From: Escherichia phage vB_EcoP-ZQ2 | DNA length: 64,000 bases | Reading direction: 5' to 3' (one strand) | Sequence record: NC_070874.1 | Shown here: positions 1,693 through 6,726 of the stretch, in pieces | Layout of the letters: each line of letters opens with the position of its first letter | How positions within the stretch are numbered: the first letter of the stretch is position 1 | Program-made: the position numbers and the translations under genes | Notes under the pieces: generated by a model | Database searches by the model: none | Seen by the model: only the letters and a program-made list of their open reading frames with translations | What the model was told of the DNA's origin: nothing

Positions 1693-1720
1693 AATAACCA
1701 AAAGCTGCGGAGCAGCTATT
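1693..1720 (-). promoter_or_regulatory. N4-type virion-RNAP hairpin promoter (leftward transcription), upstream of the RNAP II subunit gene
   Basis: CCAAA-AGCTGC(1703-1708)-GGA(1709-1711)-GCAGCT(1712-1717): 6-bp stem, 3-nt GGA loop, CC 11-12 nt from loop centre; same architecture as the copies at 5068-5084 and 5960-5974 and as the N4 P2 hairpin as I recall it (GAAGC-GGA-GCTTC after CCAAAA). Confidence 0.6.
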
Positions 1721-3129: not shown

Positions 3130-3375
3130 TTAGTTAAATCCGTAATAGTTAAAGTAAGGAGCCTTTCTGTCTTCGGTTGATTTGATAATCACTGACTCAT
3201 CCAGAAAGTACATCTTATTATTAATACGTACTTCTCTGTAAGATAGCTTACCAAAGTTACGTATATATACCTTTCTAACATATACCTTACGGGTATGCTT
3301 TAGCATGAACCAGGCATACCCTTTGGGATTCGCTAATATTGTTTTATCTACGATGACATCACTAAGATTGTTCAC
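3130..3375 (-). CDS. hypothetical early protein (81 aa)
   Basis: ORF track; operon-like spacing. Confidence 0.5.
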   Translation of the reverse strand: MNNLSDVIVDKTILANPKGYAWFMLKHTRKVYVRKVYIRNFGKLSYREVRINNKMYFLDESVIIKSTEDRKAPYFNYYGFN

Positions 3376-3676
3376 CGAGTGCCTCCATCAGTATCTTACG
3401 AATAACATTAACATCAGATTCAGTACCAATTAAGCCAACAGGCTTACCTGTACTATCTGTTACAAAGGATGCAATCCTTTCCATCTCTGCTGTAATTAAT
3501 TTATCACCACTAATAAGACGATTACGAAGGTAAGCCTCATAAGCTACCTCTACATCTTCTACTGTGGTTCTTTCATTACGAGTGAATGGATTGCTTAACG
3601 GGAATGGTAAGTGGATACGTATATTCCGGTCAGCTATCTTAGCTGAATGAGGGAGTATACAAACAATTTCATTCAA
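3362..3676 (-). CDS. hypothetical early protein (104 aa)
   Basis: ORF track; preceded upstream (minus sense) by a terminator hairpin. Confidence 0.55.
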   Translation of the reverse strand: MNEIVCILPHSAKIADRNIRIHLPFPLSNPFTRNERTTVEDVEVAYEAYLRNRLISGDKLITAEMERIASFVTDSTGKPVGLIGTESDVNVIRKILMEALGEQS

Positions 3677-3714
3677 GGTTATTTCTCCTATTTAAATACA
3701 TATCTAACTATTCA

Positions 3715-3747
3715 AGAATAAAAAATAGAAGCCCTCCTAATGGAGGA
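3715..3747 (-). terminator. rho-independent terminator (minus strand)
   Basis: Stem CCTCC(3733-3737)/GGAGG(3742-3746) with TAAT loop; in minus sense followed by CTTCTATTTTTTATTC. Confidence 0.5.
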
Positions 3748-3867
3748 CTCCTTGTTATTTGATACACGGATGATTGAAGGTAACAATCTTACGTACTGGT
3801 TCAGACGTCTGTTTCTTAACAGCCAGACGCTCTTTCATCTTCTGTACGTCTTCTTTGGTTCCCATGA

Positions 3868-4050
3868 TTAATGATTTACGCATGATTTAGTTGTCCACAT
3901 AAAGTTAAAAGGTTTATTGTTACGTACAATTCTTACAACCATTTGATAGCCATTGAGTTGCACAACACCATAGTGTCGTTTCTGTACACCAGTGTGATAC
4001 CTACGAAAGATACATTCTTCAATGGCATCTTCTATGTTAGTGAATATCAC
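3868..4050 (-). CDS. hypothetical small protein (60 aa)
   Basis: ORF track only. Confidence 0.35.
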   Translation of the reverse strand: MIFTNIEDAIEECIFRRYHTGVQKRHYGVVQLNGYQMVVRIVRNNKPFNFMWTTKSCVNH

Positions 4051-4094
4051 TGGTTCTCCCGTAATACTGACAATTGAGCACAGGTGAATAACGT

Positions 4095-4247
4095 TTACAC
4101 ATCTCCACCTGGTTCATCTCTACCACGAGCATCACTCCCTATGACTGCAAACATACCAATAATTACACCTACAGCTAATAACCATGGAAATGCAGCTACC
4201 AGCAGTATCATTAATAAAATGCACAGAATCTCTACCAGTAGCTTCAT
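4095..4247 (-). CDS. small hydrophobic membrane protein (50 aa), not in ORF track (below its length cut-off)
   Basis: Minus-strand ATG at 4247..4245 with AAGGA RBS about 7 nt upstream; translation MKLLVEILCILLMILLVAAFPWLLAVGVIIGMFAVIGSDARGRDEPGGDV; fits tightly after the 4252..4437 gene. Confidence 0.4.
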   Translation of the reverse strand: MKLLVEILCILLMILLVAAFPWLLAVGVIIGMFAVIGSDARGRDEPGGDV

Positions 4248-4251
4248 AGCA

Positions 4252-4437
4252 TTATCCTTTGTGAAGTTTACGGATTTGTTTACGAGTAGGTTTAGCTACA
4301 AAGAAGTGGTCATAACATTGACCATTTTCATCTTTTACGGATACCTGCCAACGTGCATTCAGTGACATCTTACTGCCCCATGGTTGCAACATAACAATCA
4401 TCTTCTGTGAGTTATAACGGTTACATAATGTACGCAT
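4252..4437 (-). CDS. hypothetical small protein (61 aa)
   Basis: ORF track; the overlapping plus-strand ORF 4084..4365 is judged spurious. Confidence 0.4.
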   Translation of the reverse strand: MRTLCNRYNSQKMIVMLQPWGSKMSLNARWQVSVKDENGQCYDHFFVAKPTRKQIRKLHKG

Positions 4438-4540
4438 AATGGTTACTCCTTCATCTAATATAAATCTATATCTATCTGGTTACTGTTTCAGTACCCTTCG
4501 TCTAAAGATACTCAAAAAGTAGAAATAGCTTATCGTCTAG

Positions 4541-4572
4541 TTAAAAATAAAAGACTCCCCGAAGGGAGTCTT
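4541..4572 (-). terminator. rho-independent terminator (minus strand)
   Basis: 9-bp stem AAGACTCCC(4551-4559)/GGGAGTCTT(4564-4572), CGAA loop, followed in minus sense by TTATTTTTAA; sits just after the stop of the gene ending at 4581. Confidence 0.55.
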
Positions 4573-4580
4573 GTAGTTGA

Positions 4581-4961
4581 TTAGAAAGTCAGTTTACGAG
4601 CATATTTATTCTCGTCTGCTGGGATGTCAGCAGCCTCTGCTTTCACGCGTCTTAGCTGAACTTGCAGGTTAATGATACCCTCTTCACCTGGTTCCAGGTT
4701 CTGAGCATATGCGATTAACTGTTCCAGCAAGTCGTTCTGTGCACAACGCATAGCACGGAAGTCAGCGTTGCTGCTATTAGTAGGCAGCGGTTCCTGAGTA
4801 TCCAGTGGAATACCAGTAGGCAGTGAGATGAATTTCTCATCATCAGAGCCTTCATTAGCTACATAACCAATGTTCAGCCAGAACTGAGCTTTTGGTTTGT
4901 CAGTTTTAGCAGTGGTAGCAGCAGCGTTAGATTGACCGAAAGTGAATTTTTGAATAGCCAT
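4581..4961 (-). CDS. hypothetical early protein (about 126 aa from the internal start MAIQKF)
   Basis: ORF track gives 4581..5054, but that N-terminal extension runs into the promoter hairpin at 5068-5084 and lacks an RBS; the ATG at 4961..4959 has a GGAGAG RBS 7 nt upstream. Confidence 0.5.
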
Positions 4962-5058
4962 TTTGTACTCTCCAGATTTATGTGATTTACGGGTGAACTC
5001 GTCGGTGAGAACACCCAAACAAAGGGATAAAAGTTCAATGATTAGTGGATGCATTTAC

Positions 5059-5084
5059 ATCATCCATAAGACGCGGAGCGTCTT
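5059..5084 (-). promoter_or_regulatory. N4-type virion-RNAP hairpin promoter (leftward)
   Basis: CATCCATAA-AGACGC-GGA(5075-5077)-GCGTCTT: 7-bp stem (5068-5074/5078-5084), GGA loop, CC 11-12 nt from loop centre; intergenic between the genes ending at 5090 and starting at 4961. Confidence 0.6.
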
Positions 5085-5089
5085 TATTT

Positions 5090-5305
5090 TCAGAATGGAC
5101 AGCTTGTTTCAGCTTCAAGTTTGTCCATGAAGTAGCCTGAGTTATGCAGATAAGCATGTAATTCAACATGCCCTTGCATACGGTATTCATCGAGTAAGGA
5201 GAGAAACTCTCCATACTCTTTATCTGTAGACCTTCTTGCGTTACTGAGGTCTACGGGTTTATTACTAAAGCAACTCTCAATCATACGGATATTTTCTACA
5301 TTCAT
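5090..5305 (-). CDS. hypothetical early protein (71 aa)
   Basis: ORF track. Confidence 0.45.
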   Translation of the reverse strand: MNVENIRMIESCFSNKPVDLSNARRSTDKEYGEFLSLLDEYRMQGHVELHAYLHNSGYFMDKLEAETSCPF

Positions 5306-5359
5306 GGATGACTCCTAATTGGTTGAAATGTATCCGTAAGCTGTGGAACAGCTTAGTTT

Positions 5360-5506
5360 TTACTTATCTGATAGCAGGATGGATTTTACTTTGTGACCAT
5401 TACCATAGTCAGTGTTTACCAGAGGTTTTACAATGTGAACGGAAACCATCACAACAATTGCAAGGACACAAACAGTTAAGATAAATGCGTTTTCTAGTTT
5501 GCTCAT
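5360..5506 (-). CDS. small hydrophobic membrane protein (48 aa), not in ORF track
   Basis: Minus-strand ATG at 5506..5504; translation MSKLENAFILTVCVLAIVVMVSVHIVKPLVNTDYGNGHKVKSILLSDK with one predicted transmembrane helix; fills an otherwise empty 290-bp gap. Confidence 0.35.
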   Translation of the reverse strand: MSKLENAFILTVCVLAIVVMVSVHIVKPLVNTDYGNGHKVKSILLSDK

Positions 5507-5564
5507 AGTAGGAATCTCTTTTAACTTTTTATGCAGAATAGTTGAACTATCTAATGCCCTTAAC

Positions 5565-5586
5565 AGGAGGCTCCTAAGAGCCTCCT
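5565..5586 (-). terminator. stem-loop after the gene ending at 5594 (terminator or RNA-stability hairpin; weak U tract)
   Basis: 9-bp stem AGGAGGCTC(5565-5573)/GAGCCTCCT(5578-5586) with CTAA loop. Confidence 0.35.
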
Positions 5587-5593
5587 AATTGAG

Positions 5594-5917
5594 TTATTCT
5601 TTAGTCAGGATGTCGATGACTTTGGAATATTCTGCGTTATAGATACGAGCGTTCTCAGAATCCTTGCAGAATTCCTCGATACTTTTCTTACGCAGAGTCT
5701 CAGTCATAGCTGTTTCCTCTGCCAGTTTATTAACGAATGTATGCATTTCTAATTTAGTACGAATGGCTTGTTTCTCTGCCATAGTACTTACATATGAATT
5801 AAGCATACCTACTGCTTTAGTTGCAGTACCAAAGGTATCTGCAACAGTAGTAGCAGCTGAGTTAACAGTACCAAGCAGAGTTCCTGCGGTCATACGTACA
5901 GTAGCTTGAGTAGTCAT
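5594..5917 (-). CDS. hypothetical early protein (107 aa)
   Basis: ORF track; first gene downstream of the hairpin promoter at 5960-5974. Confidence 0.55.
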   Translation of the reverse strand: MTTQATVRMTAGTLLGTVNSAATTVADTFGTATKAVGMLNSYVSTMAEKQAIRTKLEMHTFVNKLAEETAMTETLRKKSIEEFCKDSENARIYNAEYSKVIDILTKE

Positions 5918-5949
5918 GATGATAGCTCCAATAGTTGATGATAGGACGA

Positions 5950-5975
5950 CATGTCCATAACATGCGGAGCATGTG
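5950..5975 (-). promoter_or_regulatory. N4-type virion-RNAP hairpin promoter (leftward)
   Basis: GTCCATAA-CATGC-GGA(5966-5968)-GCATG: stem 5960-5965/5969-5974, GGA loop, CC 11-12 nt from loop centre. Confidence 0.6.
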
Positions 5976-6118
5976 TAACGTGTAAGGTGGGGTAGGGTAG
6001 TGGCTACACCGTCAACATACCGGGGGGGATGGTTGAGTGTAAGGGTGTAGCCCTAGGTGTACCACTGCAGCTGTACATAGCTATGACCAAAATGGTATGC
6101 AAAAATATGATAGCTATC

Positions 6119-6445
6119 CTACTTATAAGCAGTTAAATAGGAGGAAGGAATCTGGGAGAGGATGTGGTCATAGTAATAGCAGTATGCTTCACTATTGGTA
6201 GAGTTTACAGGCATACCTATGTAGTCAAACACCCACAAACAGAAGTGGTTGAGTTCGTGGATGAGTGTATGTAAGGGTTCCATAAAGATACCGATCAATA
6301 CTCGATTACCAGAGTAAGAAGTATATCCCTTACAACCATCCAAGTCTGGCTCATACCCTTTAAGTTTCTTGTACTTTTTAATGAAGGTATCCCGGTCGAA
6401 TACTACTTCTAACTGTACCGGGTAGGGGGATGTGTTTAGTTTCAT
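6119..6445 (-). CDS. small HExxH (zincin-like) putative metallopeptidase (108 aa)
   Basis: ORF track; HTLIHELNHF contains HExxH; start overlaps the stop of upstream paralog E by 4 nt (co-transcribed). Confidence 0.5.
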   Translation of the reverse strand: MKLNTSPYPVQLEVVFDRDTFIKKYKKLKGYEPDLDGCKGYTSYSGNRVLIGIFMEPLHTLIHELNHFCLWVFDYIGMPVNSTNSEAYCYYYDHILSQIPSSYLTAYK

Positions 6446-6726
6446 TGCCTTTCCTTGTAGATTGGGGTGTTACCCTCGAAGGATAGGATGTACTTGTCTG
6501 TATTGAGATGCCAAGGACTAAAGCTACCTTGCCAGGACATAGGTGTTCCTGGTTCAAGTAAATATACTTCTGCCTTCTTATTGTATAAGAAAAGTAATCC
6601 TTGTAATTCATGCAGAGACTGCTCATCTGGAACCAAGATAAGTACATCTGCGTCTAGATTAGTTATATCTTTATGACGGTAGTAGTCATCCTCAAGTACT
6701 GCTGAATAAATTTTACTGATAACCAT
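6442..6726 (-). CDS. member E of a tandem paralogous small-protein family (94 aa)
   Basis: Shares core LILVPDEQSLHELQGLLFLYN with the four upstream ORFs; TAATG stop/start overlap with member D. Confidence 0.6.
   Translation of the reverse strand: MVISKIYSAVLEDDYYRHKDITNLDADVLILVPDEQSLHELQGLLFLYNKKAEVYLLEPGTPMSWQGSFSPWHLNTDKYILSFEGNTPIYKERQ

Follow-up and report, generated by a model that had tools for sequence, protein, structure and literature searches.

The two ORFs and their source

The DNA analysed here, referred to below as the window, is a stretch of 64,000 nucleotides from Escherichia phage vB_EcoP-ZQ2 (sequence record NC_070874.1). We are concerned with two of its short open reading frames (ORFs): ORF A (positions 4095 to 4247) and ORF B (positions 5360 to 5506). 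These had been picked out in an initial annotation, made from the sequence alone, as unannotated genes for small membrane proteins of the phage early region. Both are present at these coordinates and their translations agree exactly with the two peptides quoted in that annotation, which did not give the strand. Both lie on the minus strand.

The ORFs are, however, not unannotated. ORF A is 100% identical to PP768_gp12 (YP_010659949.1) and ORF B to PP768_gp16 (YP_010659953.1), both from the RefSeq entry of Escherichia phage vB_EcoP-ZQ2 (72,231 bp). Annotated coding-sequence homologs of A and B, respectively, occur in phages G7C (gp2.3 and gp1.1), pSb-1 (gp43 and gp38) and Moo19 (gp13 and gp9), and others are found in EC1-UPM, E20 and F22. 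ORF A matches PHROG 34326 (G7C gp2.3-like; E = 2e-31, residues 1-50 against profile positions 1-50 of 50) and ORF B matches PHROG 26357 (G7C gp1.1-like; E = 5e-33, residues 1-48 against positions 1-48 of 48). Both families are catalogued without an assigned function and the orthologs are annotated as hypothetical proteins. The two ORFs merely fell under the cut-off of the ORF list used for the initial annotation. On these matches, their products can be assigned to PHROG families that are already catalogued but uncharacterised, and they are not novelties. The G7C proteins and their orthologs are 79-100% identical to A and B over the full length, occupy the same positions (after gp2.2 and after gp1, respectively) and show no difference of substance. 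In the KP8 genome paper, the equivalent ORFs were already described as helical or transmembrane proteins (PMC6950046).

A megablast search with positions 3500 to 6500 returned 82 phage records at approximately 90-94% identity, nearly all from N4-like phages of Escherichia, Shigella and Klebsiella. These N4-like phages belong to the Schitoviridae, mainly Gamaleyavirus, and the window can be classified by this similarity as an N4-like Gamaleyavirus, a coliphage of the G7C type. It runs in the opposite direction to the G7C record (window position ~6053 is the equivalent of G7C position ~7), which puts the early genes on the minus strand and the physical left genome end near 6050. The counterpart of the G7C left end is therefore inside the window (~6040-6060), which means that the assembly is circularly permuted with respect to virion DNA; the terminal repeat has presumably been collapsed.

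Evidence that both ORFs are genes

Each peptide had been described as a single hydrophobic helix and this agrees with our results. Each contains one strongly hydrophobic stretch (best 19-residue Kyte-Doolittle means of 2.86 for ORF A and 2.88 for ORF B) and is modelled by AlphaFold2 as a single helix. Taken by itself, hydrophobicity is a weak argument for a gene: the window contains 12 ATG-initiated ORFs of at least 40 codons whose best 19-residue mean is at least 2.4, and most of these are out of frame within long genes. Among them, only ORFs A and B occupy otherwise empty slots on the coding strand.

Codon usage gives a log-likelihood per codon of +0.32 for ORF A and +0.29 for ORF B in the called frame, compared with 0.16 to 0.64 for the neighbouring genes and -0.3 to -1.3 in nearly all other frames. 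Each frame is free of insertions, deletions and stop codons in seven genomes. The ratio of non-synonymous to synonymous substitution rates (dN/dS) is mostly 0.1-0.5 for both ORFs, and the synonymous excess has a Fisher P of 3e-4 to 1.4e-2 in six of the seven pairs tested. Both genes are under purifying selection. Wider searches produced 40 clusters for A and 93 for B, almost all of exactly 50 and 48 amino acids, respectively, and located on contigs of ~70-75 kb. On metagenomic contigs, both genes are called by independent gene callers.

The alternative would be that these are chance or decaying ORFs without a product and that their conservation is that of an overlapping DNA or RNA element. The ORFs are indeed short, the ribosome-binding site of ORF B is weak, the leader upstream of ORF B is highly conserved in DNA, and ORF B is frameshifted near its end in one phage, KKP3715. 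This phage is, however, the sole exception to the retention of frame and length among the relatives. Per site, synonymous changes exceed non-synonymous changes, and synonymous substitutions occur even within the invariant tail codons of both ORFs (see below), which places the constraint at the protein level. Codon usage backs the called frame only, and distant homologs retain the protein motif despite diverged DNA. There is no Rfam match over positions 3300 to 6300, so that no known RNA accounts for the conservation. We consider a non-coding explanation highly improbable: both ORFs are almost certainly real genes. A loss of the frames in related genomes, which the initial annotation had named as grounds for discarding them, is not observed.

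In KKP 3715 (positions 547-909 of that record), ORF B is frameshifted after residue 41 and fused to a downstream DUF7279-like ORF, giving a single coding sequence annotated with 120 amino acids. Either the record contains a sequencing error here or the last eight tail residues have been lost naturally. Within the window, a 93-codon ORF starting with GTG (4084-4365, plus strand) lies antisense to ORF A and to its upstream neighbour, gp2.2. It is probably not coding, since codon-usage scoring of the antisense frames over ORF A gives +0.1 at best and otherwise values near or below zero.

Sequence features of the two proteins

The ribosome-binding site AAGGA, noted for ORF A in the initial annotation, is found 7 nucleotides upstream of the ATG. 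The stop codon of gp2.2 (TAA, 4252-4254) falls within the spacer between this Shine-Dalgarno sequence and the ATG, as is typical of translationally coupled genes. Even where the upstream gene differs, the junction GGATAATGCT-ATG is retained.

The protein has a hydrophobic helix of ~31 residues with an essentially invariant core (I14-G27, ILLVAAFPWLLAVG). The helix also shows an invariant FPW core and the motif G27xxxG31. Next comes a hypervariable hinge (residues 33-38). This is followed by a tail, ARGRDEPGG, which is invariant at the protein level (G42-G47 are invariant and A40, R41, G48 and D49 nearly so), and then by D/E and a hydrophobic C-terminus. In the AlphaFold2 model the helix extends from residue 2 to residue 42, with a predicted local distance difference test (pLDDT) score above 90 up to approximately residue 35.

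A profile search with the A family against 1.84 billion representative proteins added only three further short phage proteins. Together with an ORF of 63 codons in phage Jgk1 and with KP8 gp008 (annotated as 'putative helical domain containing protein'), these define a wider A-type family. In its members, a hydrophobic helix (~30 residues, Pro/Gly at the centre) is joined by a spacer to a tail RG(R)D(E/Q)(P)GG(D) that ends in a hydrophobic residue, and in most of them this tail is more conserved than the helix. The distant relatives (KP8 gp008, the Jgk1 ORF and the 54-residue metagenomic proteins P0135 and P0137) are encoded in the same operon as ORF A, after a DUF7279 gene. Compared with ORF A, their helices are almost unrelated and the spacers that follow the helix are longer and more basic. 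Jgk1 and P0137 combine the A-type tail with a different helix, as does, more loosely, KP8 gp008, whose tail is degenerate (SRGDQGDF). The tail of P0135 is different (GGEPRDGDM). A scan of IMG/VR with back-translated ARGRDEPGG gave true matches only in G7C, pSb-1 and one other N4-like contig. Three other matches appear to be due to chance: they are in high-GC contigs, in frames that have no hydrophobic helix.

In ORF B the pattern of conservation differs. The helix (approximately residues 8-26) is variable (mean column entropy 0.78 bits), its changes being conservative and hydrophobic, whereas the tail K27-L45 is nearly invariant (mean column entropy 0.18 bits; KPLVNTDYGNG(Q/H)KVKSILL..K in the family). 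The conserved tail sequence is KPLVNTDYGNGQKVKSILL. AlphaFold2 extends the helix from residue 3 to residue 46. A profile search with the B family against 5.8 billion proteins returned only orthologs of 48 amino acids, with none between E = 1e-22 and E = 10. We also considered a lipoprotein or a cleaved signal peptide. These can be discarded for ORF B: Cys13 is not conserved and is preceded by Val, and there is no AxA-type site.

The weak Shine-Dalgarno-like motif of ORF B, AAGAG, lies 9 nucleotides upstream of the ATG and is kept in all relatives. It is part of a highly conserved AT-rich leader of ~55 nucleotides (5507-5560, minus strand; ..TAGATAGTTCAACTATTCTGCATAAAAAGTTAAAAGAGATTCCTACT-ATG), whose conservation is above that of the codons of the ORF B helix and which contains a small hairpin with one compensatory base-pair change among the relatives. 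The leader could be a promoter for the middle RNA polymerase, or a translational or processing element.

Gene order and transcription signals

From the left end, the order on the minus strand is gp1, ORF B, gp1.2, gp2, a terminator, gp2.2, ORF A, gp2.4, gp6 and a second terminator (Table 1). The start of ORF B is only ~550 nucleotides from the left genome end and, in the G7C record, ORF B is present twice, inside a feature annotated as containing the terminal repeat.

Promoters were sought as template-strand hairpins with a 3-nucleotide purine-centred loop, following the architecture of N4 early promoters as reviewed in PMC4496689. The scan recovers the three known early promoters in the N4 sequence (at 96, 565 and 4554). 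In the window, hairpins at 5967, 5076 and 1710 match N4 P1, P2 and P3, respectively, in stem, GGA loop and flank. The hairpin at 1710 also corresponds in position to N4 P3, which in N4 lies upstream of the RNA polymerase II gene (PMC4496689). The counterparts of P1 and P3 bracket both ORFs, which are on the strand that these promoters serve, and this places A and B within the region predicted to be transcribed by the virion RNA polymerase, as for N4-type early genes. The 'early region' of the initial annotation is thus borne out, both by these hairpins and by synteny with N4 gp1 and gp2. The P1 counterpart is likely to be the start of the transcript that carries ORF B.

Table 1. Positions of the two ORFs, neighbouring genes and expression signals in the window
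Feature	Position	Strand	Comment
ORF A	4095..4247	-	50 amino acids; vB_EcoP-ZQ2 gp12; homolog of G7C gp2.3 (PHROG 34326)
Shine-Dalgarno sequence AAGGA of ORF A	4255..4259	-
ORF B	5360..5506	-	48 amino acids; vB_EcoP-ZQ2 gp16; homolog of G7C gp1.1 (PHROG 26357)
Weak Shine-Dalgarno-like AAGAG of ORF B	5516..5520	-	Within highly conserved AT-rich leader
gp1	5594-5917	-
gp1.2	5090-5305	-
gp2	4581-5054	-
gp2.2 homolog (DUF7279, PF23945)	4252..4437	-	Immediately upstream of ORF A
gp2.4	3868-4050	-
gp6 homolog	3755-3883	-
Counterpart of N4 P1, hairpin ACATGC-GGA-GCATGT, flank ..ATGTCCATA	5960..5974	+ (template)	Upstream of gp1
Counterpart of N4 P2, hairpin AAGACGC-GGA-GCGTCTT	5068..5084	+ (template)	Upstream of gp2
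Counterpart of N4 P3, hairpin AGCTGC-GGA-GCAGCT	1703..1717	+ (template)
GGA-loop hairpin TAAGCTGT-GGA-ACAGCTTA, flank GTATCCG	5337..5355	+ (template)	Between ORF B stop and gp1.2 start
Conserved GC-rich hairpin after gp1	5565..5586	-	Annotated terminator in phage SP5M; no U-tract in the window
Intrinsic terminator (hairpin and T-run) after gp2	4551..4572	-
Intrinsic terminator after gp6 homolog	3727..3752	-	Closes the ORF A operon

A further GGA-loop hairpin is present between ORF B and gp1.2. It is kept in G7C, pSb-1, Moo19, CU10EC, EC1-UPM, E20 and F22 and resembles the N4 virion RNA polymerase promoters, except that T replaces C beside the loop. In the KP8 record an 'early promoter' is annotated upstream of the gene that precedes KP8 gp2. 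The hairpin may be a fourth promoter for the virion RNA polymerase, additional to those of N4.

Both ORFs are preceded by terminator-like structures. Because the conserved GC-rich hairpin lies between gp1 and ORF B, expression of ORF B from the P1 counterpart needs read-through. The operon composed of gp2.2, ORF A, gp2.4 and gp6 is downstream of the intrinsic terminator that follows gp2, and the scan found no hairpin promoter between this terminator and gp2.2. Expression of ORF A would for this reason probably rely on read-through or on an unrecognised promoter.

The gp2 gene itself encodes a conserved N-terminal extension of 31 residues (4962-5054, minus strand) that is hydrophobic or amphipathic. 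It is also found in N4 gp2, in KP8, in Jgk1 and in one metagenomic contig. Several GenBank records annotate only a short gp2 of 126 amino acids, starting from an internal ATG (4961). The membrane association reported for the gp2-DNA complex might be due to this extension.

Distribution among N4-like phages

Our database searches found the two families only in N4-like phages of Escherichia, Shigella and Klebsiella. Within this group they are patchy and assort independently among near-identical phages: ZQ2, G7C, pSb-1 and Moo19 carry both genes, CU10EC, AN24P2 and VTCCBPA_322 only A, EC1-UPM, E20, F22 and KKP3715 only B, and SP5M and nithesis neither. N4 lacks both genes and also a DUF7279 gene, and its gp1 to gp14 contain no membrane-grade hydrophobic segment.

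In every A-bearing genome examined, including distant N4-like contigs, A or an A-type relative is found directly after the DUF7279 gene or one gene further on. In phages without A, the same slot holds an unrelated membrane protein of 62-72 amino acids, 'MLDFIAF...KRNQ' (PHROG 13158), as in SP5M, E20, F22, KKP3715, EC1-UPM and nithesis. Additional hydrophobic ORFs of 26-31 codons are present in the slot region of Moo19 (gp14) and KP8 (gp009). We considered whether the DUF7279 gene and ORF A might be a co-evolving pair. This idea is weakened by the independent recombination of gp2.2 and ORF A alleles: for example, a gp2.2 with 92% identity occurs without A, and gp2.2 copies with 59-67% identity occur beside an A with 86-90% identity. 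The link therefore appears to be positional, that of an exchangeable slot.

This distribution bears on two possible roles. The first is that the peptides are structural tethers, which would hold the virion RNA polymerase, RNA polymerase II or the gp2-DNA complex at the cytoplasmic membrane during transcription-driven genome entry. Components of N4 middle transcription and gp2-DNA are tightly membrane-associated (PMC4496689), ORF B is located between gp1 and gp2, and ORF A is in the operon just after gp2. However, N4, from which the membrane-association data come, manages with neither gene and with no comparable hydrophobic ORF among gp1 to gp14. Many Gamaleyaviruses also lack A or B, so that these cannot be core machinery, and gp2 has a conserved hydrophobic N-terminus of its own. 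A tethering role is distinctly unlikely.

The second is counter-defence, in which the peptides would neutralise a membrane-associated abortive-infection or exclusion effector present in some host strains. Accessory anti-defence genes typically show patchiness, independent assortment and cassette replacement, as A and B do, and both genes are placed for very early expression. Nevertheless, there is no PADLOC match and no homology to known anti-defence proteins, nothing ties the peptides to any particular defence system, and one paper on an accessory-gene screen does not mention G7C or the Schitoviridae. We regard this role as doubtful.

Topology and structure prediction

Each protein has one hydrophobic segment long enough to span the bilayer, and no lipobox or AxA site was seen on reading the sequences. 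The products of both ORFs are very probably inserted in the membrane as single-pass proteins. Charge distribution favours an N-out, C-in orientation. This is strong for the A-type relatives Jgk1 and KP8, which have four K/R residues just after the helix compared with one before it; for the window proteins it provides only a weak prediction (in ORF B, three to four lysines after the helix compared with one to two before it). The AlphaFold2 models, built with family alignments, consist of a plain helix with low-confidence tails and we treat them as uninformative.

Possible functions

Neither the peptides nor their family profiles have a significant match in Pfam, NCBIfam, PADLOC or the PDB sequences, and no family related to superinfection exclusion, holins, toxins or defence was matched in these databases. 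A search for mimicry between the tails and other proteins encoded in the window gave only chance-like matches of 4-9 residues. No functional data were found in the literature on ZQ2, the G7C early genes, DUF7279 or accessory-gene screens.

Small membrane proteins with which A and B can be compared are known from other phages and from bacterial chromosomes. T4 Imm and Sp are small early phage proteins of the inner membrane that mediate superinfection exclusion; Imm has two helices and Sp a periplasmic domain. The bacterial regulators AcrZ, MgrB and SgrT and the type I toxin Hok are single-helix peptides of 30-50 amino acids that derive their specificity from a membrane protein partner or that oligomerise. 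SPO1 Gp56 is a small early phage membrane protein that blocks host division or cell-wall synthesis. PhiNM1 Gp11 is another such protein and blocks host division or cell-wall synthesis in Staphylococcus aureus (PMC11237401). ORFs A and B resemble Imm and Sp as small early membrane proteins but share no sequence similarity with them (no Pfam hit). They resemble Gp11 and Gp56, which bind host membrane proteins, in the same general way, but the hosts of these two phages are Gram-positive and there is no homology. With AcrZ, MgrB, SgrT and Hok they have in common the single-helix layout, but those peptides are chromosomal rather than phage-encoded and show no sequence relationship. By sequence, A and B cannot be placed with T4 Imm or Sp, PhiNM1 Gp11, SPO1 Gp56, the small membrane regulators or the type I toxins.

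A toxin-like activity should nevertheless be considered. The peptides could be membrane-active toxins or pore formers (Hok/Gef-like or holin/viroporin-like), oligomerising through the helix and depolarising or permeabilising the inner membrane. Host physiology could be shut down in this way, for example, or competitors could be excluded without specificity. A length of ~50 amino acids, an N-terminal helix and a short charged tail recall type I toxins, and the invariant helix core and G27xxxG31 motif of ORF A could support self-association. On the other hand, Pfam and NCBIfam give no hit at E <= 0.1 to Hok, to holins or to any other toxin family, and the genes are in the early region, far from the lysis cassette. 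In ORF B it is the tail that is invariant and the helix that varies, which points to recognition of a specific protein rather than to action on the lipid. Early depolarisation would also be harmful to the phage itself, as genome entry and the early promoters need gyrase activity and the energy state of the cell (PMC4496689). We consider a toxin or pore unlikely.

The explanation that we favour, with a probability of approximately 0.55 for the model as a whole, is that both ORFs are translated, non-essential early accessory genes of a G7C-type N4-like coliphage and that each product is a membrane-tethered effector. From the features described above we infer insertion, topology, tail-mediated binding and biological role as follows. 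Each gene would produce a single-pass inner-membrane peptide of ~50 residues in which the hydrophobic helix serves as an anchor (in ORF A perhaps also as a helix-packing surface, through the FPW core and G27xxxG31). The invariant C-terminal tail, located in the cytoplasm, would act as a tethered linear motif that binds a specific membrane partner. The first DNA to enter the cell would yield the peptides within minutes of infection, and these would interfere with a process associated with the inner membrane, to the advantage of the phage. The model is based on several features taken together: the anchor, the short tail with its invariance at the protein level, dispensability, the very early position of the genes and their cassette-like turnover.

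Three targets can be envisaged: genome entry or establishment of a second N4-like phage, which would be blocked (superinfection exclusion); a host envelope or division function, which would be inhibited; or a defence system, as outlined above. The initial annotation had pointed to the first two as frequent roles of early small membrane peptides in phages, and for A and B they are plausible suggestions. Very early position, patchiness, cassette replacement and invariant tails all fit an accessory role in competition or host takeover. They are circumstantial and do not discriminate among these targets. Within the model we tentatively rank superinfection exclusion first, although its overall probability is low, with inhibition of a host envelope or division function close behind and counter-defence third. 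According to a recent study of N4 lysis, no superinfection-exclusion system has been characterised for N4 (PMC12642591).

Superinfection exclusion could be taken further, in that the two peptides, together with the unrelated small membrane proteins found in place of ORF A in sister phages, might constitute a superinfection-exclusion or entry-control system of G7C-type N4-like phages. When a second phage arrives, the cytoplasmic tails would then jam its membrane-docked ejection and transcription complex, or a host factor on which this complex depends. The peptides would come from the first kilobase to enter the cell, and the position downstream of the DUF7279 gene would serve as a 'membrane effector' cassette open to exchange. 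Considerable doubt attaches to this extended proposal.

A number of observations weigh against the tethered-effector model and the exclusion role that we rank first. T4 Imm, T4 Sp and other known exclusion proteins exceed A and B in size and usually act by means of periplasmic parts, whereas the tails of A and B are predicted, weakly, to be cytoplasmic. The topology is itself soft: the tail of ORF A is net negative, and the G7C and Moo19 versions of ORF B have two N-terminal lysines. The AlphaFold2 pLDDT of the tails is 55-60 for both proteins, which is low confidence. Neither helix shows significant helical periodicity of conservation (variability moment at 100 degrees), so that a specific helix-packing face is not supported. 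With an intrinsic terminator before ORF A and a terminator-like hairpin before ORF B, the assumed level and timing of their expression are less secure. There is no homology to any characterised protein, so that the proposed role is derived from architecture and context alone. Finally, the absence of both genes from N4 indicates that they are not a family-wide solution to exclusion.

Both ORFs belong to the accessory early region of G7C-type phages and are ordinary in this context. They are also reasonable candidates for experiment, as N4-like phages have no assigned function in superinfection exclusion or in early targeting of the envelope (PMC12642591). Peptides as tiny as these are easily synthesised or expressed, and the tails (ARGRDEPGG for ORF A and the conserved K27-L45 segment for ORF B) provide handles for mutagenesis and pull-downs. 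If a target is found, a membrane-tethered-peptide mechanism would be added to the host-takeover tools of therapeutic-type coliphages.

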